Below, piece after piece: positions 5,019 through 61,207 of a stretch of 64,000 nt of DNA. The position numbers and the translations under genes are program-made. Origin of the DNA: Escherichia virus TH47; sequence record MT446416.1; one strand, given 5' to 3'. The notes beneath the pieces were generated by a model. That model ran no database searches. It had not been told where the DNA came from and saw only the letters and a program-made list of their open reading frames with translations. Within the stretch, counting starts at the first letter, position 1, and the number at the start of each line of letters is the position of its first letter.

Positions 5019-5024
5019 ACCTAC

Positions 5025-5118: not shown

Positions 5119-5122
5119 TGTA

Positions 5123-5344: not shown

Positions 5345-5363
5345 TGTATTTTCCTCATTACCA

Positions 5364-5774: not shown

Positions 5775-5795
5775 TTTTTAATCCTCTTATATAGT

Positions 5796-5852: not shown

Positions 5853-5863
5853 GTACTTTTTAA

Positions 5864-6475
5864 TTAATATGCGATTGATTCTACTACGCCATCAATAACA
5901 TTGAATTGATATTCGTTACCCTCAATCAGTGCCGTAATGTTTTCAGTAGTGAATTGATCCTTATATGCATTCTCTAAATCACGGTAAAACTTGCGTGACA
6001 ATTCACGAATAGTATCAGTTAGTAGTTTCTCAAGCTCATTAACTAACGTTTCTTGTTTTGAGGTTAAATCAGTGTAAGCCGATTCAATGTACCCGCTTAC
6101 AGTGTTCTCATGCGAGTAATGGGAGTGAGATCGCTTTACACTCATCGCCAAATCATCTTCATTCAGCAGGTGACGGATTGAGCGATACTTAGTTAATGCT
6201 CTTACCTTGCGTAAAAACTTCACTGCGTCAACGTGGTCAGTACTGATTGATGCACCGTCACCCTGGGACCAAAAACCACTGAATTGTATTTCAGCGTCAT
6301 TAATGCCATATTCTGGTAGTACTGTTTCTTTATAGTATTCAATTTCACTTTCAGAAAAATAATCGTCGTTTGTGTTTTTTTCACGTTCCCGAACCAGTTC
6401 GATAGCTGACGTTTTTTGTTCTGCGTTCAATTCAGAAAAATCCATAACATAAGTAGTAGTAGTGATAGTTTTCAT
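5864..6475 (-). CDS. hypothetical acidic protein (203 aa)
   Basis: ATG with GAGGG RBS; Asp/Glu-rich; two tandem promoters upstream. Confidence 0.65.
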   Translation of the reverse strand: MKTITTTTYVMDFSELNAEQKTSAIELVREREKNTNDDYFSESEIEYYKETVLPEYGINDAEIQFSGFWSQGDGASISTDHVDAVKFLRKVRALTKYRSIRHLLNEDDLAMSVKRSHSHYSHENTVSGYIESAYTDLTSKQETLVNELEKLLTDTIRELSRKFYRDLENAYKDQFTTENITALIEGNEYQFNVIDGVVESIAY

Positions 6476-6507
6476 TTTGTAACCCTCATTCAGTAGTTGA
6501 TGTAAGT

Positions 6508-6535
6508 ATTATACGCTTTTAAAAACAATTGTCAA
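6508..6535 (-). promoter_or_regulatory. sigma70-like promoter
   Basis: TTGACA-N16-TATAAT directly upstream of 5864..6475. Confidence 0.55.
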
Positions 6536-6586
6536 ACTATTTTATCAGGGGAGTTTTTCGTATGCCTTACTCCTGGGCTACTCAAC

Positions 6587-6653
6587 GGGGAGTTACTTAT
6601 TTCGTTCCCCGTCCTGATGTAATACATTATACGCCGTTAAACATAGTATGCAA
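6587..6653 (-). promoter_or_regulatory. early promoter + stem-loop module (second, tandem)
   Basis: TTGCAT-N16-TATAAT; hairpin GGGGAGTTACTTATTTCGTTCCCC; no ORF between it and the next promoter. Confidence 0.5.
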
Positions 6654-6696
6654 GTACTTTTTAAAATAGTTTTCAGTACTGAATAGTAAAAAGGTA

Positions 6697-6725
6697 TTGA
6701 CAGCACTATCCAGTACTGGCATAAT
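6697..6725 (+). promoter_or_regulatory. plus-strand promoter (CCAGTACTGG class)
   Basis: TTGACA-N17-CATAAT; followed by CCCACCGGGTGCA at 6747-6759. Confidence 0.5.
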
Positions 6726-6840
6726 ATACCCCATGACAACAGCTAACCCACCGGGTGCACAATTGTAACTGTACTAAACTACTTTTTCTATAGATACACT
6801 CCCGCACCCCGTGGGCCAAATTGTTCGTTTCAATAGATAC

Positions 6841-6869
6841 ATTATGCCAGTACTGACAAAATAAGTCAA
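6841..6869 (-). promoter_or_regulatory. minus-strand promoter (CCAGTACTGG class), convergent with 6697-6725
   Basis: TTGACT-N17-CATAAT on minus strand; followed by inverted CCCACGGGGTGCGG box (6804-6817). Confidence 0.5.
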
Positions 6870-6899
6870 TACTGGCAATTGTAAAGATTTGTAAACTAC

Positions 6900-7130
6900 T
6901 TATACTGCAATCGCGTCCAGGCTATAATAATAATAAGTGCCGTATTGGTGTACTTTATTACCTTTTATTTCAGTACTGAATGAATCCGAACGATTAGCAT
7001 ATGATGTTAATTTAAAGTACTTTGCTTTACTAATACGTTGCCATACACCGCAGATCCGCTGTAAGTAAGTAGTTTTATTAGTGGTAGTATCTTTTACGGT
7101 TTTAACTTCGGTCATATACATATTAGCCAT
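6900..7130 (-). CDS. hypothetical protein (76 aa)
   Basis: ATG at 7130 with AAGAGGA RBS; module upstream. Confidence 0.6.
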   Translation of the reverse strand: MANMYMTEVKTVKDTTTNKTTYLQRICGVWQRISKAKYFKLTSYANRSDSFSTEIKGNKVHQYGTYYYYSLDAIAV

Positions 7131-7152
7131 TTTTTTAATCCTCTTATGTAGT

Positions 7153-7209
7153 GGGGAAGTATTCCCCATCTGATATAAAGTATTATACGCTTTTAAACTT
7201 AGTATGCAA
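7153..7209 (-). promoter_or_regulatory. early promoter + stem-loop module
   Basis: TTGCAT-N16-TATAAT; hairpin GGGGAAGTATTCCCC. Confidence 0.6.
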
Positions 7210-7217
7210 GTACTTTT

Positions 7218-7481
7218 TTATAGTACTGCAATCTTTTTAGTACGGTACACGGTAACGCGATTGCCCTTGCGGTCGTGCTTTATTTCTACTACTCGCCGCG
7301 ATACACTATCAGGACTTTTTAACGCCGCCAACCAGTACTGTAAAGATCTGGCTTTACTTTGCTTTACTACCGCCCAACGTTTACCACGTTCCGATTGTCC
7401 GCCCATATCTTTAAACGTCGCCCCGTCCAGACGTGCGGCGATCCGTGCTTGTTCACGCGTCACAAAGTACATAATATTCAT
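7218..7481 (-). CDS. hypothetical basic protein (87 aa)
   Basis: ATG start; promoter-like TTGCAC...TATAAT upstream. Confidence 0.55.
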   Translation of the reverse strand: MNIMYFVTREQARIAARLDGATFKDMGGQSERGKRWAVVKQSKARSLQYWLAALKSPDSVSRRVVEIKHDRKGNRVTVYRTKKIAVL

Positions 7482-7562
7482 GCTGTTACCCCATCGTTGA
7501 CGTATAAAAGAAATCTATTATAAAGTACTATCACCGTGCAATAGTACTTTAAATATATTCTA

Positions 7563-7790
7563 TTACATTCCAACCATCGCCGCACGCACGCTTGATTTGC
7601 TATAACGTGCCCCATCAGGCGTGTGAGTACCTAAAAGGCGTAACATCCGCTCAACCGCTTTATCTCGCGTGTTGGTGCTTTTAATACTTTCCAGGGCCAA
7701 TTGGTACAGTGATTCATCGTTATTGATCCAAAGGCTTACATTCCAATGGTTGTAGTTTTTATGGCCGTTGAAAGTTTTAGTAGTAGTCAT
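7563..7790 (-). CDS. hypothetical protein (75 aa), paralog of 5535..5774
   Basis: paralog motifs as above; AAGAGGAA RBS. Confidence 0.7.
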   Translation of the reverse strand: MTTTKTFNGHKNYNHWNVSLWINNDESLYQLALESIKSTNTRDKAVERMLRLLGTHTPDGARYSKSSVRAAMVGM

Positions 7791-7810
7791 TTTTAATTCC
7801 TCTTAAGTGC

Positions 7811-7870
7811 AGCGGGAACCATTCCCGCTCTCGATGTAATACATTATACGCTATTTGATAGTACTGTCAA
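7811..7870 (-). promoter_or_regulatory. early promoter + stem-loop module
   Basis: TTGACA-N16-TATAAT; hairpin AGCGGGAACCATTCCCGCT; about 50 nt identical to module 8270-8330. Confidence 0.6.
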
Positions 7871-7883
7871 ACTAATTTTTAAC

Positions 7884-8246
7884 TTATTCGTAAATTTTGC
7901 CACTGTCAGCCCATACCAGGAAACGAGGCATATTATCCCATGCATCTTGTTTTAAATTTAAACCGTGTAATACTTCTGTACTTTCCATTCCTGGTACTGG
8001 TTTACTATACACCGCGAACATTTCACCCATATACTGATAAGCCATCGTTAAATCACTGGCGATCATCTTATGGATCATCGCATCAAGCATCACGGTAGCG
8101 GCGTATTGTTCACGCTTAAGCGGCAACATTGCAATAAGTCCACGATAAGCTGAAATGTGAATTTTTACCGTTTCTGCCGGAAGATCTTTCATCTCGTCGC
8201 GGAAGTTAACCAGGTTAGCAATAATTTTATTGATTTGTGTCGCCAT
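7884..8246 (-). CDS. hypothetical protein (120 aa)
   Basis: ATG with RBS; module upstream. Confidence 0.65.
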   Translation of the reverse strand: MATQINKIIANLVNFRDEMKDLPAETVKIHISAYRGLIAMLPLKREQYAATVMLDAMIHKMIASDLTMAYQYMGEMFAVYSKPVPGMESTEVLHGLNLKQDAWDNMPRFLVWADSGKIYE

Positions 8247-8269
8247 CGTTTTTAATCTCTCTTAAAGTG

Positions 8270-8330
8270 CAGCGGGAACCATTCCCGCTCTCGATGTAAT
8301 ACATTATACGCCGTTAAACATAGTATGCAA
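8270..8330 (-). promoter_or_regulatory. early promoter + stem-loop module
   Basis: TTGCAT-N16-TATAAT; hairpin AGCGGGAACCATTCCCGCT. Confidence 0.6.
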
Positions 8331-8380
8331 GTACTTTCTACAAATACTTTTAAAATAGTTTTCTTTCTATATAGGGGAAC

Positions 8381-8432
8381 TATCTTTCAGTACTATCTTT
8401 CAGTACTATCATTCAGTACTATCATTCAGTAC
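8381..8432. repeat. 4 x 13-bp direct repeat TATC(T/A)TTCAGTAC
   Basis: four contiguous units read directly. Confidence 0.85.
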
Positions 8433-8596
8433 TGAATCAATCCACTAAATCATCCCTATACCCCGTAAAACGGCCTCAGACGCATTCTAACGCATTAATA
8501 CACCTAAGCTATACATTTGCACCATTCCAATCATTCCAGGGCTTTACGGGCCGTTGAAACGCGTTAAATTATTTTCAATTATTTTGTTTTTAGGTA

Positions 8597-8624
8597 TTGA
8601 CTTGATCCTGAAAAAGCGTATAAT
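8597..8624 (+). promoter_or_regulatory. plus-strand sigma70-like promoter
   Basis: TTGACT-N16-TATAAT; CCCACAGGGTGCGG box about 30 nt downstream. Confidence 0.5.
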
Positions 8625-8813
8625 TACTACATAAGCCGGACACAAGGCACTAACCCACAGGGTGCGGAATTACGCCCAAAATTCAAGATATAAAAAAAGG
8701 ATACACTCCCGCACCCTAGCAGGTCAACGCACTTTCTCAGTACTGAAATATAGTACCATAGTACTTGCCAGGATAGCAAGCAAATTAATTAAAACTTTTT
8801 TGCTTCCAGGGTA

Positions 8814-8841
8814 TTGCTTTATTTTTTCAGTACTGTATAAT
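8814..8841 (+). promoter_or_regulatory. plus-strand promoter
   Basis: TTGCTT-N16-TATAAT; CCCACCGGGTGCA box at 8870-8882. Confidence 0.45.
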
Positions 8842-8937
8842 AGTTTCATCAAGTCGAGAAAGACTCAAGCCCACCGGGTGCATAGTTACGCCCAAAATTC
8901 AGTACTGAAAAAATTTTTAAAATATCTGTCCAGGCCG

Positions 8938-8966
8938 TTGACATTGCCCCCAGTTTATAAGATAAT
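8938..8966 (+). promoter_or_regulatory. plus-strand promoter
   Basis: TTGACA-N17-GATAAT; two GGGGAA...TCCCC-type hairpins downstream. Confidence 0.45.
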
Positions 8967-9059
8967 GATTCCAGATTCAGAAAAATCTAACTCCAGATAC
9001 TGCGGGGAAACTATCCCCACGCGGTAGGGGAACTATTGGAAAAAACAAAATAAAATTTT

Positions 9060-9200
9060 GATTTAGCCGTCTATACTTCCAGACGTGTAACCATCTAGCC
9101 GTTTAGCCGTCCAAACGTCTAGCCATCCAGCCATCCAGAAATCTAGCCGTTTAGCCGTCTAGATGGATAGCCATCTTTACTTCCATACTTCTGGAGGTCT
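9060..9200. repeat. iteron cluster (TAGCCRTY x about 9) with CCAAAATCC repeats just downstream
   Basis: tagccgtc / tagccgtt / tagccatc units within about 130 bp, interleaved with tctaga-type palindromes. Confidence 0.8.
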
Positions 9201-10099
9201 AGACATATCTACGTCCAAAATCCACCCAGGGTTACTACACCCAAAATCCGTCAGTACTATACCATAGATCTATCTTTTGAAAGGGAGTATTCAGTACTGC
9301 CATCATAGCCCTCACTATGTTACCCTAGGAGGATGAAGACTATCATGTAGTACTGAATACTGTTAGAGGGAATCCACCAGCTTGTGCTGGTGGCATAATG
9401 CTTTAGATTAAAATCAGTACTGACACCATTCTGTTAATATCAGTACTGTTATTACGATTTTCATATGAGGTTCAAAAAGATGTACCACCACAGGAGGAAC
9501 TATCTTTTCTGTACTGTCTCACGACAGGAGGTAGAGTAAATGAATTGTTCGCAGCAACTCATCTCTCTATGTAGAACATTATACAGTACTGAATCATAAT
9601 GTCAATAACTTTCTTTCACCATTCAGTACTGATATTCTTGAGAACTACCCGTCTACAAACATCATTATATCCCACAAATCATAAACGTCCCAACGTAAAT
9701 TTCAACTTTCGAAGATCCAACTTTTATTTCATAGGTACTCCAAAATTTTTAGGATCGAGATTTAGGATGGAGTACTAACCAACTTTTTGCTGGAGCCTCA
9801 AGGGGTAATTGAATTTTACCCCGAAGGGTAAAAGGGTAATTGAAATTAAGGTGAAAGTAATAATTCAGTACTAATCATTGCGTGATTACTTTTGATTACA
9901 TTTGATGTAATTTGCAAAATGGAAAAGGAGCTTGGAAACTAAAAAGTACGGTAGACTTCCTCTGCCTACTTAGTGGGATATCGACACCTTCAGTACTGAA
10001 TACTTTTGGGGCAGTACTGCTACGTTCTTGATTAAACGTGCACATTCCTGTACTCTATTACACTCTAGTACTCACTACTGATCAGTACTGATCACTACA

Positions 10100-10150
10100 G
10101 TGATTATAAATGATTACTTAAATGTTTATATATGATTACTTATGATTACT
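10100..10150. repeat. ATGATTACTTA direct repeats (3 copies)
   Basis: read directly. Confidence 0.7.
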
Positions 10151-10154
10151 TATG

Positions 10155-10175
10155 ACAAAGAGAAGCCAAAAGCTT
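10155..10175 (-). terminator. terminator of small-gene array
   Basis: hairpin GAGAAGC-nnnn-GCTTCTC followed by T-rich tract on minus strand. Confidence 0.5.
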
Positions 10176-10312
10176 CTCTGTAGAGTTACGGGGTTTAGCC
10201 TGGAGAGAATCCTAGTGATCGCATTTGTCCAGGCTGAATTTTAACAATTCGCCTGTACATAAAGGTTGTTCACTAGGAGCTTCCCCAGTCTCTATGTGCT
10301 CTATATGTTGAA

Positions 10313-14352: not shown

Positions 14353-14377
14353 GTACAGTTCTCCTTATATTCCTTCT

Positions 14378-14406
14378 ATAGTACACCAGTACTGAAAGGA
14401 TGTCAA
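14378..14406 (-). promoter_or_regulatory. promoter of small-gene array
   Basis: TTGACA-N17-TACTAT on minus strand, divergent from the first RCC1-like gene promoter. Confidence 0.55.
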
Positions 14407-14410
14407 GGGT

Positions 14411-14450
14411 TTTGTTTATGGGGTAAATATGATATAATGAATAAAGGAGG
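14411..14450 (+). promoter_or_regulatory. promoter/RBS cassette of RCC1-like gene 1
   Basis: TTGTTT-N16-TATAAT then AAGGAGG 5 nt before ATG; same TATAAT-AAGGAGG cassette upstream of genes 3, 4 and 6. Confidence 0.5.
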
Positions 14451-14455
14451 GAAAT

Positions 14456-15577: not shown

Positions 15578-15585
15578 TAATAGGT

Positions 15586-15616
15586 CAGTACTGAAATATG
15601 TACTGGTATTTTTTGT
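15586..15616 (+). terminator. candidate terminator
   Basis: CAGTA...TACTG hairpin followed by T-run. Confidence 0.4.
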
Positions 15617-15654
15617 AAATACTATATAATTATTTTAATTTTGGAGATTTAATC

Positions 15655-16824: not shown

Positions 16825-16832
16825 AAAGAAAA

Positions 16833-16862
16833 GCCAGTACTTGATACTGGCTTTTCTTTTTG
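16833..16862 (+). terminator. rho-independent terminator
   Basis: GCCAGTACTTGATACTGGC hairpin + TTTTCTTTT. Confidence 0.65.
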
Positions 16863-16897
16863 TATTAAATATAGTATAATGAATAAAGGAGGGAATT

Positions 16898-18007: not shown

Positions 18008-18021
18008 TACTATAAAACTAT

Positions 18022-18051
18022 GCCAGTACTTGATACTGGCTTTTCTTTTTG
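18022..18051 (+). terminator. rho-independent terminator
   Basis: same GCCAGTACTTGATACTGGC hairpin + T-run. Confidence 0.65.
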
Positions 18052-18085
18052 ATTAAATATAGTATAAAGAATAAAGGAGGGAATT

Positions 18086-20416: not shown

Positions 20417-20423
20417 AATAATG

Positions 20424-20452
20424 CCAGTACTCTGTACTGGTATTCTTATTTG
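20424..20452 (+). terminator. rho-independent terminator
   Basis: CCAGTACTCTGTACTGG hairpin + T-rich tract. Confidence 0.55.
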
Positions 20453-20486
20453 TATTAAATATAGTATAATGAATAAAGGAGGAATT

Positions 20487-22307: not shown

Positions 22308-22385
22308 GAGTGCCTCAATTAAATTGCTGTAAAATTGTACGTTATAAAATGAGTAAATAAAGTATAACACAAGGAGATTTTTATT

Positions 22386-26852: not shown

Positions 26853-26885
26853 ATTATAGCAAAAAGGGCTGACCGAAGTCAACCC
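26853..26885 (-). promoter_or_regulatory. terminator-promoter cassette (copy b)
   Basis: GGGTTGACTTCGGTCAGCCC hairpin + T5, TTGACT(-35)-N18-TATAAT, then GAGGA RBS. Confidence 0.6.
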
Positions 26886-28299: not shown

Positions 28300-28331
28300 A
28301 TTATAGCAAAAAGGGCCGACCGAAGTCAACC
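28300..28331 (-). promoter_or_regulatory. terminator-promoter cassette (copy c)
   Basis: same hairpin and TATAAT. Confidence 0.6.
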
Positions 28332-29116: not shown

Positions 29117-29136
29117 CGGACTGACCGAAGTCAACC
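29117..29136 (-). terminator. cassette hairpin (copy d, degenerate promoter)
   Basis: GGGTTGACTTCGGTCAGTCC downstream of denV stop. Confidence 0.5.
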
Positions 29137-29687: not shown

Positions 29688-29719
29688 ATTATAGCAAAAA
29701 GGGCTGACCGAAGTCAACC
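29688..29719 (-). promoter_or_regulatory. terminator-promoter cassette (copy e)
   Basis: hairpin + TATAAT upstream of denV. Confidence 0.6.
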
Positions 29720-31272: not shown

Positions 31273-31305
31273 ATTATAGCAAAAAGGGCTGACCGAAGTC
31301 AACCC
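31273..31305 (-). promoter_or_regulatory. terminator-promoter cassette (copy f)
   Basis: same element. Confidence 0.6.
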
Positions 31306-35325: not shown

Positions 35326-35358
35326 ATTATAGCAAAAAGGGCCGACCGAAGTCAACCC
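35326..35358 (-). promoter_or_regulatory. terminator-promoter cassette (copy g)
   Basis: same element. Confidence 0.6.
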
Positions 35359-36022: not shown

Positions 36023-36040
36023 GGTTGACCGAAGTCAACC
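36023..36040 (-). terminator. cassette hairpin (copy h)
   Basis: perfect GGTTGAC-CGAA-GTCAACC palindrome with 9-nt T-run on minus strand. Confidence 0.6.
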
Positions 36041-38852: not shown

Positions 38853-38880
38853 TAAAAAAAAGGCTGACCGAAGTCAACCC
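38853..38880 (-). promoter_or_regulatory. terminator-promoter cassette (copy i)
   Basis: same hairpin. Confidence 0.55.
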
Positions 38881-39271: not shown

Positions 39272-42200
39272 TTCACACTCCTTAAAGAGATAAATTACTT
39301 TAATATTTATACTTCATGTGCTGTTTATTTCCACAGACACTTAAGATTATATCACATATGAAATGGTTGTTCCAAAGTCAAATCAGTACTGTTTAAGTTC
39401 TGAACTGAAGATAAAGGAATCCATATCTTCTAGTGTTAACTTCAAGTCCGGTGTGTACTTTAATATCACACATTCAGGTTTCTTAATGGCAGCTTGATAG
39501 GCAGCAATTGCCAACTGTTGAAGCTGCTCTGGTGTGTAGTTCATGCGTTCTGCATTGAATACGATGTTGTTAATATCACCACCTGGCAGCTTCTCAAACT
39601 CACGCATAACAGCAGCCATCACATCATCAGATGTATTCTTATAAGCCCAATGAGGTAGTTGCATAACATCATAAATCTCGCCATTGTCGTTCATAAGAGA
39701 GATCCATTTTTTACCGTCCGATGAACTAAACAGACGACCTTTAATAGCAATGTTCTCTACCAAATTAACAAAGGCAAATATGTCTTGCTCATTTAGTTCA
39801 ATGCTATTAACGTTAATCCAACCCATACTACATCTCCAGTTATAAATCACGAACGACATTCATTAAACACAATTTGGGCTTTATCGCATTCAAAACCCAT
39901 ATGCATTCTTTGTAAGTTGCTATTATAGCATCTAAATGCTCAGTTACAATGCTTTCTTGAAAATATTCTTCTTCATTGAGTTTTGCTAAATTAGTCACAT
40001 CACATGTAGGTACTATAGGTCTGGATTGTACACCCATTCCATTATTGATATTGGTAAAATGTAAAAAATTGTACTTCACCACACCGTTATCTACACTTAT
40101 GATGCATGTCAAATGTTCCAACTCAGTTAGTTCGGTATTACAAGTGACATGAATGAATCCAGCATTATAGGCTCTATAATCATCTACTAATATCTCAAAA
40201 TCATTACGTTCAAATATAAGTGAAATGAGTTTGTCTTGTGGTTTAACCTTCTGAAATTTTACCGAATTTACGTATGATACTTTAATCTTAGATGAAATTA
40301 TCTTTTTACTAAGTGCAGTTAATTCTTCTTTAGCCTTAAAAGTTAAAGTTATAGGTCTAAATCTAGAACTTTTGTTCTTCTTTGATACTTTGAACTTACC
40401 TTTTCTATTCATTAATTAAACCCCACATAAAGTAAAAGGGATGGCATATTACCAACCCTATATCTTTTATTTTTTAATAGATTCATAAAGCAGAAACAAC
40501 CAAATAAACATTGATGAACAAACTACTACTGGGATTAATGTAAATTCAGTAAAGAATAAAAGTATTCCATAAGTTAGTATGCAACATAAGTTTACGTACA
40601 TAATTGCTTCTGCATTTTTATTTTTCATTTTATATGCAATGAATGTTGGTGACCACATTACCAAAAATGCAAACAACGCACATATGATGATTACAGTTTC
40701 CATATTACACCTCCGCAAAATAATGTTCTGTACTGCTATTATTTACAGAGAATATCTAAAAAAATTGATCTAGATCAATTTTTAGTCACTTTACAATTTG
40801 AATCTTTTTTGTACTGAACAATCACATTGTTCTTAAGGAAGATGATGGTCCCATAGGAACCTTGGGCTGCAACTTCAACAATATGGTTCTTATATGTTTC
40901 AGTATACCCTTCCATCTCGTTGATACACACTACATGATACTTTGGTTTAGCACATACAACAGTACTCAAGAATAGCAGTACTAGTACTAGATATTTCATT
41001 TTATTACCTTATAAACAAGAACAGGAATCCTTTTACGGATTCCTATAATTTAGTCCTTTAATGTACCATTGTGTAAACGATTATACACATCATTGCGACG
41101 CAACGCAACAATATCTTCAGCGTACTTCATTGTAAACGCCCATGCTTTTGGATGCACATTAAGCTTCATACGAATGCGATTCTTCATCAATTCACCGCTT
41201 AGGCGAACAAACTCATGAACACCACGACTTCCGTACTCTGAAATCAAATCATTGATGTACATGTTGCGAAGGGTTTCGTCTGTACATTCTTTAACCATTT
41301 CTACGTCTGCCACGATGCTTGCATTTACTGAAGTACTGATCATTTTTAAGTTACCTTATTTGAATTGGACTGTAATTTTATCACCTTCAACTACGAACTT
41401 ACAGTCGTAGCGACGGGCCATATCCATATACATATGCTCAGAATACCACGGAACATCAATATCAGGATGCTCTGCGTATTGTAGCACTTCACGGTCACCA
41501 ACAGTAGTGATGACGAAAGGAATGTTCATCTCTCGCAAAAACAACTCAGCACCTGGTGAACGATTGACAAACTCAGTGTCGTTACGCAAAGTAAAACCAT
41601 TGTATTGTAATTTAAGCTTCATGATTATCCTCTAAGTTAATACCATTCTTTTAAACCATCAAGTTCGGCTATGTGAGTAATTATAACACAGATCACACTG
41701 AGGTCAAGCATTATTTGCTCATAATTTAATTTTATTCTATCATCATTGTATGCTCTAAAAACAACATCAAAGTCGAAGTAGTTATCGTTTTCATCATTCA
41801 TTGGAATGATTCTATATCTACGCCTACCATCATCATTGAATACAGTTAAACACTGTTTAAATTTCTTCATTATCTGTGTATTCAATGCATTGTAATATGC
41901 AACATCATATTGTGTACAACGTGGGTCATTGGGTAGATAAAACGATACAAATTTTTTTAATTCTATTTGAGTCTTATCCATATACAGCCTCATGTATTAC
42001 TCTTTTACTTTGGCGGTACTCATCCTTTGCTTCTTTCACTGACATGATACGAACCAGTTTAGCACTACCACAATAGTACTGAACCTGACTACGACCAATG
42101 TCAACATGATTATCAGGAACTTCATATACTGATACAGCAAACCCTGCACGATGTAATTTACCCAAGTCCATAGTAAAGAACTTAAACAAATCATTCAAAC

Positions 42201-42443: not shown

Positions 42444-42475
42444 ATTATAACAAAAAAGGCTGACCGAAGTCAACC
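42444..42475 (-). promoter_or_regulatory. terminator-promoter cassette (copy j)
   Basis: same element; TGA stop of 42470..42691 lies inside the stem. Confidence 0.6.
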
Positions 42476-49509: not shown

Positions 49510-49949
49510 TTTACATTAATCCTTCTATGCTACAACCAATAAGTACTTTTTTCACTTCAATAACTCGTACCAAATAGAATCCATTTGAAAAGTTAAAACT
49601 ATACATTTGTACTAAGGCATCTGCTTCAGATTTCGCACGGATACATGATAGATATAGTTCTCGTATATCGCCATCCAACGATGCTTGTTTCTCGTCATTG
49701 ATAACAATAGAACGAATCTCAAAACGAACACCATAACTCATTCTGTTTGTCCAACAATTAGTTTTTCTTTAGTATTACTATTGTAACACCACATTAATTC
49801 TTCACCAACTGTTCTAAGTGAAACGCTGTTTACTTGTTCATACGTACTGTCACGTACTGCAATGCATTGATTCATTGAATTCATTGGGGTGATTTGTACA
49901 CCAGATTGTGGTGAAAGAGCAATAATTAAAAAGATTACTGAATTCATTA

Positions 49950-50552
49950 GATATTCCTCAATGGTTAATCATCCATCTCTTCGAGATGTCTGTTCGCTTC
50001 TAATACTACGTATTCTACGCGAATGAATCATAACTGTCAAGGACTTTTAATATTGACGGGATTTGTTGAGGACTTTTTCATCCCCCGCAGGGGAATGATG
50101 GTAAGAAAAAAGAGACAATTAAGTCTCTTCTTGACGCTGATGGCATCGGATTTTATTGTATCGTGAATTTAGGACGGATCTATATTGTAATAAATCAATC
50201 GCAAACGGAAGCGGGTTGCTCTGTTTCTCCCTATCACGGTCATATGCAACGGTCACTGGTCTTTTCATCCCAGCACTCACTTAAAACTCCATACAATCGA
50301 AGTTCAAGCTGTCTTATAATAAGACTCCCTTAGCAAATCTGGTAAGGTGCGATCCTTATATGTCTATCGAGGAACTCTCGGTATGCTTATCGGAGTTCTT
50401 TATACAGCCGCATTGCCGTGAGGGGTTCAAACTATGCCCACATCTAACGGGTTTCTTTTGCTGTTCGTTCTGTAGCACAACTCATCTGCCCTCTACATTT
50501 TCGAGTGGTTCAGGATTATTTTATTCTAAATGAGCTACAGGTTTTTTTTATT
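49950..50552. other. GC-elevated ORF-free island (candidate structured RNA or decayed element)
   Basis: no ORF of 60 aa or more in any frame; visibly higher GC than flanks; several hairpins; promoter TTGACA-N17-TAGAAT at its minus-strand 3' edge. Confidence 0.3.
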
Positions 50553-51197
50553 CTAAATTTTACTTAATGACAAAGTAATACGTCCATTAAGTAAATCATC
50601 GTTTAAAACATCAATTCTACGTTGTAAACCTTTTATTACACCATCTGACACACTATTATTATATTTTTTAATAATATCAGAAAGATGTTCTTTTTTGGCT
50701 AATTGCCATTTTGCATGAGCTTCTTCAGGTGTGGGAAATGCACCCAAATGATATTTTTTCTTATTTTTGTAAATTTGTGCATAATATGGATTTTTGTATT
50801 CAAAACTCATATTTTTTTTAGGTATATGATAACAAACACCAAGTGGTTGATTTTTATTATTTTTGTCAATGATACACATGTTTATTTCATTTGGTACAAA
50901 TGAACACGTTTCAGGAGAATACATTTTTTTATTACCGTCGATTAAATCTTTATCTAATTCATAACCATCTTTGTAATTTGATATATACCATTCTTTAAAT
51001 TTAGAGTATGTTTTCCATTCATCACATATAATAACTCCTATATATGTTTTATGAGTTTCTTGATACTTTTCAGAATAACATCGTTTTATCATATCTTTCC
51101 ATGTATAATAAACTTTACTATAAACACTTTTTTTTGTGGAATCACCTTTAACATCATTGATTCCAAAACCATATACCAATTTCATATTAAATTCCAA
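50553..51197 (-). CDS. putative freestanding homing-endonuclease-like protein
   Basis: N-terminal YGFGINDV...YYTWKDMIKRCYS...ICDEW resembles N-terminal domains of phage HNH-type endonucleases (memory only). Confidence 0.4.
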   Translation of the reverse strand: MEFNMKLVYGFGINDVKGDSTKKSVYSKVYYTWKDMIKRCYSEKYQETHKTYIGVIICDEWKTYSKFKEWYISNYKDGYELDKDLIDGNKKMYSPETCSFVPNEINMCIIDKNNKNQPLGVCYHIPKKNMSFEYKNPYYAQIYKNKKKYHLGAFPTPEEAHAKWQLAKKEHLSDIIKKYNNSVSDGVIKGLQRRIDVLNDDLLNGRITLSLSKI

Positions 51198-51253
51198 TTA
51201 TGGTTATCATACTAACATTGTATCACACTTTCTAAATTTGTCCCATAAAAAAA

Positions 51254-51273
51254 GGGCTGACAGAAGTCAACCC
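51254..51273 (-). terminator. cassette-type terminator (copy k)
   Basis: GGGTTGACTTCTGTCAGCCC + T8 directly after sigma gene stop. Confidence 0.6.
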
Positions 51274-51280
51274 TTTAATC

Positions 51281-52246
51281 TTAAAAATCTTCGAACTCAT
51301 AACCTTTTGTCTTAACCATCTTACGCAGTCGTTCCATTGCTTCAGAGTACTTACGGTGCAATGAAGAACGAGCAGTCATGACCTTACCCTTCTCATCTTC
51401 AAAACCACTCTCAATGATTTCTCGTAGCGTTTCTGGTTCAGAATAAGAACCAATACCATGTACACGTTCAATCAATTCACGGTCTTTGGCAGATAGGTTA
51501 CTCATCATTTCTGCAATACTTTGTACCAGTGGGGTACTGACAGTTTCTACGCCTAAGTTGTAATCAGGTTCAACTGAAGTAACAATGTCAGATAATGTAC
51601 TTTCTGAATCATTACTCATTTTCATATTCAATGCTACATAAGTGTTATTGTAAGTTAGACAATTCTTAACGTGTTGAATCTCAATACCAGTCTCTTTTGA
51701 CACCATCTCAGGAGTTGGGTATTTACCATGTTTCCTTTGATACTCTTCAACACAACGTTTCACATAAATGTTATTAACACTCATATAACGTGGGAAATGC
51801 ACTAGATAATTAGCATCTGCACTTTCGTTATAGATTGTCATGTACACAGTTGTTGTTGCATATGTAATGAACTTAACATTTTTGGTAGTGTCGAACGTAT
51901 GAATTGCTCGCATTAAACCTTCAACACCATAAGAAATCTTATCTTCAAATGGGATAAAACATGTACATTTACGTGCAACACTTACTACCATTGGATAGTT
52001 GTAGCGAACCAAAAGGTCAATGTTCTTTTCAACGTCAATACCATCACGCACTGCTTGGATGAGCATTTCATTCGTTATACCTTTAGGGCGAGTTAAACTG
52101 ATACCTGTTTTTGGTTTCTCAAACTTGTGACCGTCATGTTCTTCTTCATCAACCGAATCTAGAGCCTCTAAGACGTTGACTTCTTCACTAGCAAAACACT
52201 CATCCAGTACTTCTTCAAAAATTGCATTTAAATCAAGCTTTTTCAC
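51281..52246 (-). CDS. sigma-70 family RNA polymerase sigma factor
   Basis: region 2: YGVEGLMRAIHTFD...FITYATTTV...HFPRYM; region 4-like LSAKDRELIERVHG...ARSSLHRKYSEAMERLRK. Confidence 0.75.
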   Translation of the reverse strand: MKKLDLNAIFEEVLDECFASEEVNVLEALDSVDEEEHDGHKFEKPKTGISLTRPKGITNEMLIQAVRDGIDVEKNIDLLVRYNYPMVVSVARKCTCFIPFEDKISYGVEGLMRAIHTFDTTKNVKFITYATTTVYMTIYNESADANYLVHFPRYMSVNNIYVKRCVEEYQRKHGKYPTPEMVSKETGIEIQHVKNCLTYNNTYVALNMKMSNDSESTLSDIVTSVEPDYNLGVETVSTPLVQSIAEMMSNLSAKDRELIERVHGIGSYSEPETLREIIESGFEDEKGKVMTARSSLHRKYSEAMERLRKMVKTKGYEFEDF

Positions 52247-53838
52247 TTACTTCTCCTAATGAATGAAATCAAAAACGGTATACATTAATATTATCATCGG
52301 TATAGATATCATGGTTATGAACATCCATGAAGGTATCAAATACCTTATCAAGAAGAGTATTATACTCTTCATGTAATGCTGCATCAAGCATGTATTCACC
52401 ACCACTACCCATAAAGAATGTATAATCATTATGGAGATAATCAATCTTCTTGGTAAACTTACCCTTATTAATGATTAAGTGAATGATGTAATCTTTTGAC
52501 ACAAGAACACAGTGACAACTCGCCTTGCGGTCTGGTATCACAGTCTCTTGTGAAATCAAGTATCTCAGTACTTTGTTAATTTCACTAACCTCACCGCAAG
52601 CACTAAACAGTCGGTCGTGTACATACAATGTTTTTTGTGAAACTACACCATAACTAAGTTTTGGCTTCAACGGGAATAGGTTCAAAAATGAACGCTGCTC
52701 AGTTGATGTCACTTTTGAATCAGTAAGTAATACTCCCAAGCGTTTATCAATATAAACAGTTGTCATATTAAACCTTATCTAAAAATTTAGCATAGATATA
52801 AAATTCTTTATCGTTGAATACATTAATTCTAATATCGAAGCGTTGAAGTGTATTCATGTATAATGAACTTTTTAAATAAAAATACAATGCAACAAATTCA
52901 GATATATGCATATTCTTTTTATTATTACATAAATTCTTTAGCATTTTAATGCTATCAAAATCATCTTTATCATATCTGTACTGGAAAAAATTGTATCTAT
53001 TTGAACGGCACTCATAGATGAGAAGGGCCATTATATCAATACATGCTTGAGATTTACAGTACTTATTCAATACAGGGTAATCACCAGTACATAATGCTAC
53101 GAAGATTTTATGTGCAAGTGTTGCTTTGCCTTCAATCGTATAATAGCCAAAAAATTTAATGATTAAGTAATGTATAAATCTAAGCATTGGATTTAGAATT
53201 TCTCCGAAATTACAAGTGTATCATCATAGTCATCAGCAACGGAGTTCAGTACTTCCAAATTACTTTCACCAGAAATACTTTGTACTTCGTTCAAAAGATA
53301 GTTTAGATCAACAGTTGTTACTTTTTCTGAATCAAACACACAGAAAGTCAATTCAGCGTTTGGACAGATCTTCTTCAGATTATCAGCAACAACTTGTTTG
53401 AAGTTAAAAGATGGGGAAGCAACCAGGTTAACTGCAACGAGAATAGATTTCATAATGTTTTCCTTTTTAGCTGATAATTAAATTAGGAGCACATTGTACT
53501 CCATGTTATTGGTTAAGTCAAATACTTTTAGATACCGAGTACTGAATTCAATTCTTTACGCTTGTTATATGAATCAGATTCAAACTTGCTTTTCTTATTG
53601 AAAAGGGATTCGATATCCTTATAGATAGCTTCGATGGATTTAGTTACAACCCATTCGGATTCCTGAAGCATAGCTTGAAGACGTGCGTACTCAACTTTGA
53701 TAGTACTGCGAAGTTCTTCACAAGCTTCTTCGTTCTTAATTAGTGCTTCACTAAGTTCTTTGACCTTATCGATGTTCATAAGTTCCTTACCATTTCCTAG
53801 TTTTGATGTAATAATTATATATCTCTCAATAACTCACG

Positions 53839-54270
53839 TCAACTGTTTTCCGTACCTTTCTCTGCCATTTTGGTGATGTGCCATTTGAGTACTGATTTGT
53901 GTACCATAAAAAATGTGAATGCAAAGACTGTAATGGCTGCTGAAGTAACACTATTAGATAAAGACCCAAGTTGGATGTTAGTACCTAAAATAACAATAAA
54001 TGGATACAACACAATAAATCTACTGTAAGGTTCGTCTCCAGTATCACGGATAAATACAAGCCTTTCATGATCAGTATCCATTGTGACAATTACAATTGGA
54101 AAGAACATAAGTGCAGACATAAGAGCAATACCAATTTGTGCTACATTGGAAATTGTAAACCACAAAGGATTTAAACCATATGAAATGTTATTTTCAGTAC
54201 AGTAATATCCGAATGTATTGAATGTACAAACTAAAAATACAAAAATGCAAATCTTATTGTATGCCCTCAT
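53839..54270 (-). CDS. polytopic membrane protein (143 aa), paralog of 54267..54704
   Basis: several hydrophobic helices; RLVFIRDTG vs RLLFVKVFG motif. Confidence 0.6.
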   Translation of the reverse strand: MRAYNKICIFVFLVCTFNTFGYYCTENNISYGLNPLWFTISNVAQIGIALMSALMFFPIVIVTMDTDHERLVFIRDTGDEPYSRFIVLYPFIVILGTNIQLGSLSNSVTSAAITVFAFTFFMVHKSVLKWHITKMAEKGTENS

Positions 54271-54704: not shown

Positions 54705-57026
54705 GCCTTTTTAATAGCATCCACTGCGTTCTGGTCTACGACTTCCTGTTTAGTAGCACTGGCTTGTAGTTTATCAACTACATAGTTCTTAGCATCTTTT
54801 TCAATCATAAACTTACCATCAACTAAACACCCAAATACTTTAGAGTTACGTGCTGGGTATGTCCCGATTTCATCAAGAGTACGAACTTTCTTATCAACTA
54901 CAATTGCTTTGATGTAACCAGTTTCCAGTACTGTAGTAATGACAGTCATTTCGATTGCAATTGGTGACTCTTCCCAGAATGCAATCCACTTTGTGAAGCT
55001 GCGATCCGGTGAATCTTTTGTTGGCTTCAGTTTAATTGCACTGTTGAAAATGTACTGCTTGAATCCATCTTCAACCACTTCACTGATACTTAGGTAACCT
55101 TCACGTTCTTCTGCGTTGCGTTTGAATTGAGTAGCTAATACGTCCATCGTTAAATCCTCTTGTCAGTTATTGCGGTACGAAGCTATTATACTACCATTTA
55201 CTATTTGGAGTCAACACATTTCAACAAGTATTTTTCTATGTATCTTATATGTGATGGTGGTAACAGTAAGTTTTCGTATCTAACCCTGTACACACTACAA
55301 TCTCCTAGATGAAAATGACTGGTAGGATACAAGTCAGTTCTAATACTAACACGTTTACGATTATCAGTAAAGTTAATTAATGATTTTGGATTGTTATTAG
55401 CATGAGTTCTTACAAAGTATTCAATTTCATTGAGTGCTTTTTCGTCGTATACATACTTGTCAAACACACCTAGTGTAAAGTACCTTGGATGGTACATATA
55501 TGAGAATAACAATGCAGGAATATACTTCTTTATCCCTTCGTGTTTTGCAATAGCTGAAGCATATGCAAAATGTGATGCATCAGAGAAGATGTTAAGAAAA
55601 ATGAAATATGACACTAATAAACCTAGAATCAGCAAAAGTGTCATTCAAAACCTCTGTATTTTTCATATACTTCAACACATTCCATGATCTTGTCATCATC
55701 AGTCATGTCATAACCCTGAAGAAATTCTTCTTTATCAACATTAGCAGCCATCATGTCATCATCCGAAATCCTTGAATCATAGAATGTGTACATATCTTTA
55801 TAGTACTGCTTGTTGTGCTGTTCATCCTTAACCTTAGCATACCCAGCACAAAACGATGGTGATTTAACTACATTCCATTTATGCTTTTTGATAGGCTTAT
55901 CATTAGCATGTTTTTCACGGTATTGCTGGCGGTAACGTTCACGCATCTCAGGCATGTATTCTTCCGCAGTACGTTTTGGTTGGGCTTTCCCTGTTCCAAT
56001 CGTCTTGATTGTTTGACGCTGGTCTTCCGCATGTACTGGTGCAACAAAGCAGGAAGTACTGAATACAACAGCAGTGATTACTAGAAAGTGTTTAAACATA
56101 ATCAAACCTCTTTTACAATAATGTCGATTTGCACAGGAATAGCAATCTCACTATTGCATGAATAAACATCTGCACAGTACTCAATATCTAGTACTTCATA
56201 GTATTTTTCAAAGCCACAGATTGTAAGATTCAACGTAGCACCAATAGCTGGCAATACGGGAAAGGATAAAAATGCAATTTTAGAATTAAATTCTTCATTA
56301 ATATCTTGATATACAGTGGCAGTAATCATAATGGTAACTCCTGAAGTGGTTTAATAATACTCAGTACTGGGTGATTTTCAATCATCGGTCGCCCTGGTAC
56401 ACCTGTTAGCACAACTGGAATCGAACTAATGTCTTTTACATAGTTGAATCCCTCAAATGTGAATTCTTGCTTTTTCTCATTATACAATACCCACAGAATA
56501 ACGTCAGCTTTTTTCTGTATATTTTTTAACTGTCGAGTACTAACACATGGTCCAAAGTCTGTCCACGATTTGTACTTGATACCTTTCACTTCAATTCTTA
56601 AGTTGTTTACTTTGATATCACATTCACCATCACGACCATCACTTTGGAACGCTGGATCAATGTTAAGTGCAATACCTGAATAGTTTTCAATTTCATTAAA
56701 AAGTACAAATGATGCATGTTCACATACCATCCCTACAAAATGACTGTGAGCGTGATTAAATCCATACGGCGATTTACTTGCAGGTGCAAGAATCTTATAT
56801 CGTTCAGATTTCTCAATTGCTTTAGCCATAAAAGAATCAGCTTCATCTTTGTATAGCTTAACAGTCATTTTGCCATTTTTCAGTACTAAACGTTTTTCTA
56901 CAACACTCATAAAATCCCCTTATTGATATTCCATTTAAGTATACGTCAAAAACACAACTCAGTCAAGGTGCTTTTTTACCTATCCAGAATAAATACGTTA
57001 TAATAATTATACCAATGGAGGGATGA

Positions 57027-58220: not shown

Positions 58221-61207
58221 TCTATATCTTATTTGAAGTTTTTACGTAGAACTTCTTCCAGTGTTTGTTCTGGATTAGCAATTGCAACAGTGTAAATCAA
58301 ATCTTTGAATGCCTGTACTGCTTGCTCAGTTGCTTCTTTACCGAAGTTAGCTGAAATACTGCTAAACATATTTTCAGCACGTTCAGAACTAATTAGTTCA
58401 TTAACAAAGGTATCAATCTCTTTTTTGAGTTGTCCAGTTGTCATGTCACCAATTAGCATTTCATCAACTTCTGGCTTTTCATCAGTACTAACACGTACAT
58501 TTGTAAAGCCAAATACATCATCCAGTGAACCAAAACTATGTTTAACTTTAGAAACAATAGATGGCTTGGTGCGTTCTACTGGTTCTACTGGTTCTTCTTG
58601 TTTCTCTTCAGAATCAGTACTTGATTCGTATGGCTTGGTGAACATATGAGTGAGAACGTCATCAATGTTTTTAATCATACCTTCAACACGTTCTTCAGTT
58701 TTCTTAGTAACTTCTTTGAATGCTTGCTCAAGTAGACGATCTTGAACTGTAGTACGTACATCACCAACAACACCACGTAATTTTTCATTACACTGGTCTA
58801 GAATTGATAATAGTTCACCACTTTTAATTTTGTCAACCAATAAATCAAGGTCAGATTTAACTTCAGGTTTCTTCTCAATACCATTTAGTAAGCTGTTAAG
58901 CTCTTGAGCACCCTCAATCGCTTCTTGATGACTGGTAAATTGAACAGGCACATCAACACCATCTAGAACGATATTGAGTACTTTACCATCTACATAAGCG
59001 TAAGAGTAATATTCTTTTTTGAAGGAAATGGTTTTGAAGAAAATGTTGCTCATATTGTTACTCCTTATTTCCCAGATGCTGGGTATGTTTTAAACATATA
59101 GTGACATTGTACTAAATCATTGAATTTCAATCCAAAATCTTTAGTACCCATCAGTGTGTGATAAAAATAATGTGAAATCTCATTGGTTTCTGCATCTTTA
59201 ATATAGATACCGAACTCGGTACAGCAGAACTGAACGACTTCATTATAACCTACTAATTTCGAAACAACAAGTACTTGATCATAAGAATTTGCATCAAAAC
59301 GAATGATATACATATCTTCAGTTTCAGGATGCACAATCATACCACCACGTGAAATGATTTTGACAAAATTCTCGCTCAAGTACTGAATTGTTGAACTCAT
59401 GTCCATCTACGACTCCTTGCGTATAACACGTCCTGTTAAGTGCTCATCTGCACAGAACTTCATTATAAATGCCTTAAGATAGAAGTTGTCTAAGATGCGG
59501 TATGCTTGCTTCTTCATAACAACTTCCTTCTTTTCTACATCTACAATTATATCATGTTCTTCATGAAGTTCCTGGATCATTTTGTAAGTTTGGAAATTTA
59601 GTACGCTCATAACCACCTATATCCTCCATTTCCCATAAAATTCCAATCGCAACTGAAAGATCATGGTGAATTTGAAAATAGCCATGTGCAGCAGTGTAGA
59701 TATAACCATGCTTGGTTATTGCATAACCCCACTTCTTACTCTCCGAATGCATCGCACGCTTCAATGCATATGGTGATCGGGGTAGCTTCTCTGGCTCTGG
59801 CTCACGGTTTTCGTTGTAAATCTCTTGTTCGATTCTCAACGCTTTATGATATGAGTATACATGAATTAGACGACAAAGTACAATAGTAATGCAACAAATA
59901 ATTGTAAAATATATCAGATTAATCATTTCAACCTCTGCATAGAAACGTACTCGTTGATTGCATCAACTAAATCATATCCAGACATCACCGTATCATTGAT
60001 GGTCACATTGTACTTTTTACGAACTTGTGTACCATCTGTTTTACTGTATAGTGATCCATCTGGTTGAATTGTTAAAGTATTGTTTAGAATAAAATCAAAC
60101 ATTTCTTCTTTTGATAGATTTACAGTACGTGTGTCAATATGATCAGTACTTACCAATTCACGAGTATGTTTGACACCGTACTCGGTGTGTTCACCTACAC
60201 TACGATGCAATACCTTTAACTGCTCGGCTGCTGTCTCTTCATCATAGACATGAATAGTTTCAGTACTGTATACAATATCTTGAATATTACCAGTACTTAC
60301 TTCTGTCCATGTATCTTTGAAATGTGTTTTGATTGTTTTCATAGTAGTTCGTATTAGTTATATGAAGTGAATAAATCAATATTTGCATCATCTACACTGA
60401 TTAATTTACCAGTTGAACTAACAAACACAATATTACCACCAGGGGTGAGTTGAACACGCTGGTTTACTGAATATTGATCACTAAGGTTATAATTAGCCCA
60501 TTCAACTACATAACGCTGTTCAACACCATTAGTATCATAAAGATAAACGTGTGTAACATCACGCATTTTTAAACGTTCTAGTAGTGTTGAGTTATCCATG
60601 AAATCAGATGGTGTGTCACTACGTAATGCGATACCGAACTCACCAATACCAGTACGAATAGTTAGACCGTTGGAAAAACGACTACAAAGAGTTTTCTCGT
60701 CAGCAATATGCATCCATAAAACATTCTTTACTTCAATCTCAATGAACTCACAATTTTCAAAAACTAAACCTACTTTAGAAACCTTACCATTAAATTGCAT
60801 CATAAACTCCTGTTTTTTTGTATTTTAAAATAAAATCTCTTGCTGCTTTCATAAGTTTAAATGGAATAGCTAATTCTTTAACAGTACTATCCATGAAATG
60901 TTCTTCTTCTGTATCATAGAATGTTGACATGTAATGGTCACAATCGTCAATTCTATCCCAGAAATCGGATGTACTTGGCTTGTTAGCGATGACAGTTATT
61001 TGTTTATCAGTTTTAGTATAGGAGGCATGTATCGTTAATCCAACATCACCCTTTTCAACACGAATTATAAACGAATTATTAGATGTATAACTCAGCCAAC
61101 AATCTTCACCGAAGTATACAGTACTGTGTTTCTTCTCAAATGTATTACTGTTTTCAAGTACATCAATGACAATATCAACCGCATTGTCACTTAAAATTTT
61201 GACCATA

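Follow-up and report, generated by a model that had tools for sequence, protein, structure and literature searches.

A sigma-70-family factor of RaK2-like jumbo phages in Escherichia virus TH47 and a candidate class of middle promoters for it

In the Bacillus phage SPO1, an early phage sigma factor, gp28, displaces the host sigma factor and turns on the middle genes, including those for the late sigma factor gp33/34. Here we analyse a gene for which we propose a cascade of the same logic, although the proteins, the host and the promoter sequences differ: a sigma-70-family sigma factor gene of Escherichia virus TH47, located in a stretch of 64,000 nucleotides (sequence record MT446416.1) that is referred to below, at its full length, as the window. 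Orthologues of this gene have already been described in the RaK2-like jumbo phages. The CBB genome paper reports CBB_513, a protein with regions 2, 3 and 4 encoded in a presumed early region (PMC5259590), a comparative survey of jumbo phages assigns an RpoD-like and a minimal gp55-like sigma factor to its group 2, which is devoid of an RNA polymerase (PMC7824862), and Gp519 is given as a sigma factor in the fEgEco12 paper (PMC13070987). As an identification the gene is thus ordinary and adds nothing new: more than 30 jumbo-phage records in GenBank already designate its product a sigma factor.

Sigma-70-family factors of other phages, namely gp36 of phiEco32 and gp47 of the Salmonella phage 7-11, have been shown experimentally to bind the E. 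coli or Salmonella core enzyme and to drive middle or late promoters (PMC8948821). They differ from the TH47 factor in representing unrelated ECF-like or minimal lineages, and neither comes from a jumbo phage; furthermore, phiEco32 gp36, unlike the TH47 factor, lacks region 4 and reads a single element, and the promoter of 7-11 gp47 (GTAAtg-N16-aCTA) is unlike the class discussed below. The transcription programme of T4, in which MotA/AsiA serve the middle and gp55/gp33/gp45 the late promoters, is similar in its three promoter classes, its late TATAAATA-like motif and its gp55 homologue, and also in its middle promoters, where a new box stands upstream of a -10 element of the sigma-70 type. 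However, T4 remodels the host sigma-70 and has no RpoD-like sigma factor, whereas the RaK2-like phages encode one.

The sigma factor and its relatives

An earlier reading of the window, made from the letters alone (hereafter the sequence-only reading), had recognized the gene as encoding a 321-residue sigma-70-family factor, and this identity is now supported by sequence, profile and fold. The open reading frame (ORF) is present on the minus strand with a GTG start (table 1), and its translation contains all the region 2 peptides quoted at that time (YGVEGLMRAIHTFD, FITYATTTV and HFPRYM). In Pfam searches the protein exceeds the cutoffs for both Sigma70_r2 (PF04542; 37.3 bits against 24, aa 79-141) and Sigma70_r3 (PF04539; 44.8 bits against 25.3, aa 162-224). 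A profile check proposed with the sequence-only reading thus came out positive for region 2, but for region 4 only at the level of the family: the Pfam search of the single protein gave no match to Sigma70_r4 (PF04545), yet a C-terminal profile of 94 residues from 11 family members has RpoS region 4 as its top eight matches (best E 3.1e-5), which agrees with the region-4-like helix-turn-helix claimed earlier. Given this match, all three globular sigma domains are present. In an alignment of 17 sequences, comprising 16 phage proteins and one cellular sigma factor, the sigma2 model is matched by all and Sigma70_r4 (at E ≤ 1) by eight, one of them being the cellular protein. A comparison by hhalign of the C-terminal profile with one cellular sigma factor aligned region 4.1 and the first helix of the helix-turn-helix only (probability 7%), and was not used as evidence.

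The protein opens with an acidic segment (aa 1-50) bearing the strongly conserved motif MKKLDLN..EEVLDECF, which is followed by sigma2 (aa ~59-145), sigma3 (aa ~153-198), a region 3.2 linker and sigma4 (aa ~240-313, with an insertion at ~280-292); regions 1.1 and 1.2 (r1_1, r1_2) were not called by Pfam, either in this protein or in the 17-sequence alignment. It matches PHROG 351 ('RNA polymerase sigma factor') with E 1.8e-47, and its closest solved relatives by sequence are SigB and SigA of Mycobacterium tuberculosis (Mtb), RpoS and RpoD (E 1e-17 to 1e-14). An AlphaFold model shows sigma2 and sigma3 with confidence together with a C-terminal helical domain, although the predicted template-modelling score (pTM) of the full-length model is 0.36 because the domains are flexibly linked. 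With this model, Foldseek aligned 245-275 columns to RpoS and SigA chains (E 3e-11), the TM-scores being low, despite E-values of 1e-11, owing to the low pTM of the full-length model. That the window contains an intact gene for a sigma-70-family sigma factor is hence practically certain, and binding of the core polymerase and promoter-specific initiation are the functions predicted for its product.

The position of the protein within the sigma-70 family can also be specified. The NCBIfam models of RpoD, RpoS, SigB, SigBFG and FliA all match it (E 1e-27 to 1e-12), but far under their curated cutoffs (RpoD_Cterm, 96 bits against 354; RpoS, 81.8 against 378.7; SigBFG, 67.5 against 234; FliA_WhiG, 61.3 against 190). 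Group 1/2 factors (E. coli RpoD/RpoS, Mtb SigA/SigB) provide the best matches in sequence and fold, with regions 2.1-2.3, 3.0-3.2 and 4.1 alignable, whereas the TH47 protein differs from them in having no called region 1.1/1.2, in its changed recognition residues and in an insertion of about 10 residues in the turn of region 4.2. It resembles group 3 factors (FliA/WhiG, SigB/F/G; model matches with E 1e-17 to 1e-19) in its sigma2-sigma3-sigma4 architecture and in the absence of region 1.1 and of the W-W dyad, but it is not nested among them, its nearest relatives all being phage proteins. The possession of a sigma3 domain separates it from group 4 (ECF) factors, which consist of sigma2 and sigma4 without sigma3, and among PHROGs it matches phrog_351 only, not the T4 gp55-type families that were tested (phrog_234 and phrog_12791).

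The sigma region is 96-98% identical to its counterparts in the Escherichia jumbo phages Ecwhy_1, WPEC3, EC.P1, WPEC5, Turkey3, vB_Ec-M-J, BF17, fEgEco12 and CMSTMSU. Relative to Ecwhy_1, WPEC3 and fEgEco12, identity across the window is ~98%. Protein identity amounts to 98-99% for WPEC3, WPEC5, BF17 and vB_Ec-M-J, 59% for the PBECO4/121Q group, 40% for RaK2 and K64-1, and 33-38% for GAP32, CBB, BF and the Yersinia (fHe-Yen9-04) and Erwinia phages. All RaK2-like jumbo phages have orthologues, which are present in Asteriusvirus, RaK2, GAP32, CBB, BF and the Yersinia phages, and most of the respective records label the product 'RNA polymerase sigma factor'. An exhaustive HMMER scan returned just 15 representative clusters at E ≤ 1e-30, mostly near-full-length, with the bulk of cellular sigma factors starting from about 1e-19. 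On these sequence grounds we regard the protein as a member of a small phage-specific clade of RaK2-like jumbo phages. With the RpoD-like factors of the clade (CBB_513, Gp519 and those of GAP32, PBECO4/121Q and RaK2) it shares full-length orthology, length, the N-terminal motif, a PRY motif, the sigma4 insertion and the early-region context, and the window differs from those loci only by an HNH endonuclease gene inserted just downstream. The fEgEco12 paper gives Gp519 as missing from Ecwhy_1, yet we found the gene there at 98% identity.

As for the residues concerned with promoter recognition (sigma-70 numbering), the W433-W434 dyad reads T-T in the TH47 protein and has S, T, A or V in every phage homologue, Q437 and T440 are replaced by M and Y (R436-Q437 being kept in some other clades of the family), and H455 and E458 are replaced by Y and V inside a family-wide P-R-Y-x-S-V motif. 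The group 1/2 motif TYATWWIRQAITR is replaced by TYATTTVYMTIYN, and PVHM by PRYM; the residues of the A-11 pocket (F419, F427, T429 and Y430) are unchanged. A conserved insertion of about 10 residues, G-[FYL]-x-D-x-x-G-K, modelled at high confidence as a small beta-hairpin-like loop, separates both helices of the helix-turn-helix in region 4.2. Such divergent recognition residues and the unusual insertion in the turn might suggest a competitor or decoy that occupies the host core to shut off the host without productive promoter recognition. We find this scarcely credible, as the DNA-facing helix, the PRY motif and the sigma2 pocket are strongly conserved over clades at 33-60% identity and the full sigma2-3-4 architecture is kept.

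Promoter classes and their possible readers

Promoters were sorted into classes from the gene upstream regions of the assembled fEgEco12 genome (PP777464.1, 369 kb), in which three classes exist. The early class, TTGAC[AT]-N16-18-TAnAAT, has 75 sites on the coding strand against two on the other, and a variant of it, GTACTTGCA-N17-TATAAT, has 36 against one; these host-type promoters cluster at 0-20 kb and 260-369 kb. The late class, TAAATA-N3-5-TATA, which resembles the T4 late promoter TATAAATA, precedes capsid, portal-region, sheath, tube, baseplate and fibre genes and every RCC1-like gene. The third, or 'middle', class is T-G[AG]GACA-N13-TGnTATAAT. The pattern G[AG]GACA-N16-TAnAAT has 17 exact sites on the coding strand and none on the other (about 0.5 expected; 0-1 in Markov simulations), 17 of 18 sites share a 16-nt spacing, and the TG extension is present in 16 of the 18, as against 19 of 116 promoters of the early types (Fisher p 2e-9). 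Third-class sites are distributed over 60-255 kb, and the genes that they precede include those for the sliding clamp, gp32, primase and topoisomerase. The gene g336, which codes for a gp55-type late sigma factor (PHROG 12791, E 1e-152; phrog_234, E 1.5e-16), has such a site 58 nt ahead of ATG 191073, where it likely begins. The start annotated for g336 (190974-191912) is probably 99 nt too far upstream; the middle-type promoter (190988-191015) falls within the annotated 5' end, and ATG 191073, with a GGAG Shine-Dalgarno sequence, opens the part matching the PHROG profile. The authors of the CBB genome paper predicted the same three promoter classes, without linking the second one to the sigma factor (PMC5259590).

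In the window a middle-type promoter stands right behind the terminator of the sigma gene, as it does in fEgEco12, a 121Q-like phage and RaK2. The CBB-type motif TGAAACG was tried in the window as well and rejected, since it occurs at chance level and the clade has GRGACA in the same register.

The sigma gene itself closes a row of four co-oriented genes (53453 down to 51281), and a host sigma-70-type site upstream of them is the likely promoter of this operon (table 1). Each of the nine phages compared has sigma-70-type consensus promoters on the strand of the sigma gene, at a distance of 0.5-1.6 kb upstream of it, and none of the nine has a middle-type box upstream of the gene. Given these promoter positions and the location of the gene in an early region (at 306 kb in fEgEco12), it is most likely an early gene transcribed by the host holoenzyme. 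At its end lies a cassette-type terminator, as the sequence-only reading had stated: the hairpin (-18.9 kcal/mol, z -4.4) belongs to GGTTGACTTCGGTCAGCC, which has 11 copies in the window, all on the minus strand, where none would be expected by chance. In most of these copies a TTGACT in the stem precedes (TGC)TATAAT by 18 nt, so that a terminator and a host-type promoter for the following gene overlap; the copy behind the sigma gene differs in that a middle-type promoter comes next.

Which promoters, then, does the phage factor read? The general argument of the sequence-only reading, that a dedicated sigma factor implies a phage-specific promoter class, is reasonable, but the two classes it put forward are probably wrong. 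The TTGACA-N17-TACTAT sites are early promoters of the host sigma-70 consensus type, clustered in the early regions of fEgEco12, and since TTGACA sites lie upstream of the sigma gene itself, they must work before the phage sigma factor exists. The latter might take such promoters over as a surrogate housekeeping factor, sustaining phage transcription from TTGACA/TATAAT promoters once the host sigma-70 has been inactivated. In keeping with this idea, its best profile matches are RpoD, RpoS and SigB, the A-11 pocket is retained and the phage genome contains very many consensus sigma-70 promoters; however, recognition residues of regions 2.4, 3.0 and 4.2 are changed across the clade, there is a distinct class with a box other than TTGACA that must be read by some factor, and an anti-sigma-70 factor was not identified. 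We therefore deem a surrogate role rather improbable.

The other class put forward comprised the TATAAT-AAGGAGG cassettes of the RCC1-like array, which are highly repeated and have no -35 element, and phage sigma factors serving late genes are known (e.g. 7-11 gp47). Yet all these cassettes contain TAAATA upstream of TATAAT, i.e. the same T4-late-like TAAATA-N3-5-TATA arrangement as that of the capsid and tail genes, and a separate gp55-type late sigma factor is encoded elsewhere in the genome, behind a middle-type promoter. Moreover, sigma4 of the window factor is intact, which implies a -35-type element, and the late class has none. It is thus very unlikely that the window factor drives the late class; the RCC1-array cassettes presumably depend on the gp55-like factor. 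The best candidate for its target is the class GRGACA-N13-TGnTATAAT, which fits better than both of the earlier ones.

The box of this class occupies the -35 register and keeps the ACA of TTGACA. Compared across the phages in the same register and spacing, it changes by clade in step with the recognition helix of sigma4. GRGACA is accompanied by the helix RSSLHRKY in the fEgEco12 clade (17 sites in 369 kb), by RSSIHRKY in PBECO4 (5 sites in 50 kb) and by RTSLHRCY in two metagenomic relatives; GAAAC, by KATLSRRY in CBB (5 sites in 50 kb; the same box is found in GAP32, BF and fHe-Yen9-04); and TGAACA, by RGTLHYKF in RaK2 (~6 sites, 16-17-nt spacing). An ungapped alignment to sigma-70 (anchored at ALRKLR/AMERLR) would leave R584 in place and have E585, R588 and Q589 replaced by S, H and R, respectively, a pattern that would fit a box with its ACA half kept and its first two positions altered. 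We infer that the altered recognition helix of region 4 reads the box.

Several points weigh against this assignment. The co-variation of box and helix follows phylogeny, with three box types in three or four clades, and is therefore not independent evidence, and the residue-to-base correspondence rests on an ungapped alignment with no structure behind it. The -10 element of the third class is a perfect host-type TGnTATAAT, and the residues that sigma-70 uses for the -12 base and the TG are changed in the phage factor (Q437M, T440Y, H455Y, E458V, W433T and W434T). Among the core-binding residues of region 2.2, Q406, E407 and N409 are changed (D403, G408, G411, L412 and M413 are kept), and a literature search found no experimental work on the RaK2-like sigma clade and no RaK2-like transcriptomes. 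The motif would be accounted for just as well by host sigma-70 with an activator bound to the GRGACA box.

In such a scenario, host sigma-70 would read the class through the extended -10 element, with a MotA/AsiA-like phage activator/appropriator at the box, while the phage factor, devoid of the residues by which sigma-70 reads -12 and TG, would serve a smaller set of promoters. We consider this unlikely. Whereas a MotA box is centred at -30, the GRGACA box is in the -35 register, its spacing is fixed at 16 nt and it keeps the ACA of the -35 hexamer; nor did we see a further over-represented class that the phage factor could be left with. In addition, a tblastn search of fEgEco12 for T4 AsiA and MotA gave no match (E > 2), a weak result given the low sensitivity of the search and the use of approximate query sequences.

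We regard it as highly probable that the phage factor redirects the host polymerase to phage promoters. Whether its target is the GRGACA class, as opposed to this class being read by a modified host sigma-70, is evenly poised in our judgement, because the -10 element is host-like and its reader residues are lost, and the co-variation is bound to phylogeny. The overall explanation, which we find somewhat probable, is that the phage factor gene is read early by the host enzyme and that its product then directs the middle GRGACA promoters, in a cascade with the gp55-like factor that is comparable to those of SPO1 gp28/gp34 and phiEco32 gp36. In this cascade the host sigma-70 holoenzyme would transcribe the gene early, as the last of a four-gene unit, from consensus promoters about 1.3-1.6 kb upstream. 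The phage factor would take the place of sigma-70 on the host core RNA polymerase and guide it to T-GRGACA-N13-TGnTATAAT, and with it to the nucleotide-metabolism and replication genes, the gp55-like late sigma gene and the structured RNA family that this class precedes; the gp55-like factor would finally act at the late TAAATA promoters.

A probable multi-copy structured RNA and other features of the window

The ORF-free stretch downstream of the sigma gene (table 1) is conserved from the E. coli phages to RaK2, the flanking proteins of which share just 40% identity. It belongs to a family of elements of ~450 nt, present in 4-6 copies per genome and found at 302 places in 72 phage records, all RaK2-like and mostly without annotation. 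One copy is kept directly 3' of the sigma gene from the E. coli phages to the Klebsiella phage RaK2. All four copies in fEgEco12 begin just past a third-class promoter (at 59818, 110597, 195695 and 307084), and the same is true of CBB, BF, GAP32 and fHe-Yen9-04, a third-class promoter (GRGACA/TGAAAC-type) preceding every copy examined. A structure was modelled from an alignment of 13 copies, with slid partners and 500 shuffles as controls. The model has 22 helices and strong covariation, with 90.8% of the alignment cells paired compared with 36-43% in the slid controls, and 48 pairs with compensatory changes compared with 7-18; the observed values were reached by none of the 500 shuffles. Rfam 15 gave no match for this stretch, either with the whole window at the gathering threshold or with positions 49900-51300 at E ≤ 10, except for terminator look-alikes, and a transfer RNA scan of the whole window found nothing in the conserved non-coding region. 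The multi-copy element is probably an undescribed large structured RNA. For the non-coding RNAs of phage PA5oct, their authors report no similarity elsewhere.

A reading of the motif CAGAUGAG...CGAA in this RNA as a hammerhead was rejected, since the essential U4 is missing in all copies. An exact-pattern scan of viral contigs (AGAAACAGNNNNACCCGC) returned mostly chance matches, nine of the 120 loci being true copies according to nhmmer: five on jumbo-phage contigs of 354-378 kb, two on contigs of 16 and 23 kb, and two on contigs without a recorded length.

The HNH homing endonuclease ORF between the middle-type promoter and the RNA is missing at this site in the fEgEco12, 121Q-like and RaK2 loci, and the best phage matches begin only at window position 51216. 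This absence from relatives suggests a recent insertion of a free-standing homing endonuclease gene. On the other side of the sigma gene, the adjoining 165-residue protein has no Pfam match; in all close relatives its gene and the sigma gene are transcribed together.

Three further features of the window deserve mention. The palindrome CAGTACTG occurs 58 times, against 0.9 expected, and most densely at 5-15 kb; both coding and non-coding DNA contain it, as do promoter spacers and the terminator stems of the RCC1 array, and it could be a binding, modification or restriction-related site. At ~2000-8300 an early-promoter cassette is repeated on the minus strand (e.g. 2709-2790), consisting of AAAAAGTACTTGCA-N17-(GCG)TATAAT-nnn-TTACATC followed by a GGGGAAnnnTTCCCC hairpin and a Shine-Dalgarno sequence. 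This part corresponds to the terminal-repeat region of fEgEco12, which has 36 such promoters, and the hairpin in the 5' untranslated region is conserved. Finally, about 2 kb at ~8250-10300 have no convincing ORFs and are rich in CAGTACTG and in the short direct repeats GATAGTACTGAAA and TAAGTAATCATA; early-type and middle-type promoter-like sites are both present there.

Table 1. Positions of the features discussed, in window coordinates unless fEgEco12 is named.
Feature	Position	Strand	Remarks
Sigma-70-family sigma factor gene	51281..52246	minus	321 aa, GTG start; from the ORF list
Shine-Dalgarno sequence AGGAG	52253..52257	minus	6 nt 5' of the sigma GTG; read from the sequence
Three co-oriented genes 5' of sigma gene (86, 139 and 165 aa)	52269..53453	minus	no terminator between them and the sigma gene
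165-aa gene adjoining sigma gene on its 5' side	52269-52766	minus	weakly HslV-peptidase-like (phrog_1040, E 4e-6); annotated as HslV in fEgEco12
Host sigma-70-type promoter TTGACT-17-TACAAT	53493..53521	minus	~1.27 kb 5' of the sigma gene; likely operon promoter; position conserved in 121Q-like phage
Second host-type promoter TTGACG-17-TATAAT	53814..53842	minus	5' of the operon; position conserved in 121Q-like phage
Intrinsic terminator (hairpin and T-run) of sigma gene	51251..51276	minus	11 pairs, GC-rich, 4 nt past the stop codon
GGTTGACTTCGGTCAGCC terminator hairpins	1020-1037, 26867-26884, 28314-28331, 29119-29136, 29702-29719, 31287-31304, 35340-35357, 36023-36040, 38862-38879, 42458-42475, 51255-51272	minus	
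Middle-type promoter GGGACA-16-TACAAT with TG	51217..51244	minus	directly past the sigma terminator
Middle-type promoter GGAACA-16-TATAAT with TG	39346..39373	minus	5' of a 127-aa ORF with homology to a virion protein gene of fEgEco12
Middle-type promoter-like site GGGACG-16-TATAAT	9664..9691	minus	in a non-coding stretch
HNH homing endonuclease ORF	50553..51197	minus	214 aa; phrog_953, E 3.5e-74
Structured RNA copy (probable)	50060..50530	minus	in an ORF-free stretch (600 bp) downstream of the sigma gene
Structured RNA copies of fEgEco12 (probable)	59911-60369, 110669-111192, 195775-196228, 307157-307587		fEgEco12 coordinates
RCC1-like array intergenic cassettes TAAATA-N3-5-TATAA(T)-AAGGAGG	14353-14455, 15578-15654, 16825-16897, 18008-18085, 20417-20486, 22308-22385, 56911-57026	plus	

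Implications for the RaK2-like phages

A broader proposal, which we regard as tentative and somewhat more doubtful than not, is that the sigma factor, the clade-specific promoters (GRGACA, TGAACA or GAAAC with TGnTATAAT) and the multi-copy RNA may form one middle-phase regulatory module of the RaK2-like phages, in which the unusual sigma4, with its insertion in the turn and its altered recognition helix, would read the box and the RNA family would be one of the main outputs. Of its parts, the structured RNA family is probably a more novel object than the sigma gene.

The RaK2-like phages, with genomes of ~350 kb and no RNA polymerase of their own, are being isolated as candidates for therapy, and it is their regulatory logic that could matter. 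The concrete assignment proposed here, leading from host sigma-70 to the phage factor at GRGACA and on to the gp55-like factor at TAAATA, would make their transcription programme directly testable. If true, it would provide an orthogonal pair of sigma factor and promoter that is functional with the E. coli core enzyme.

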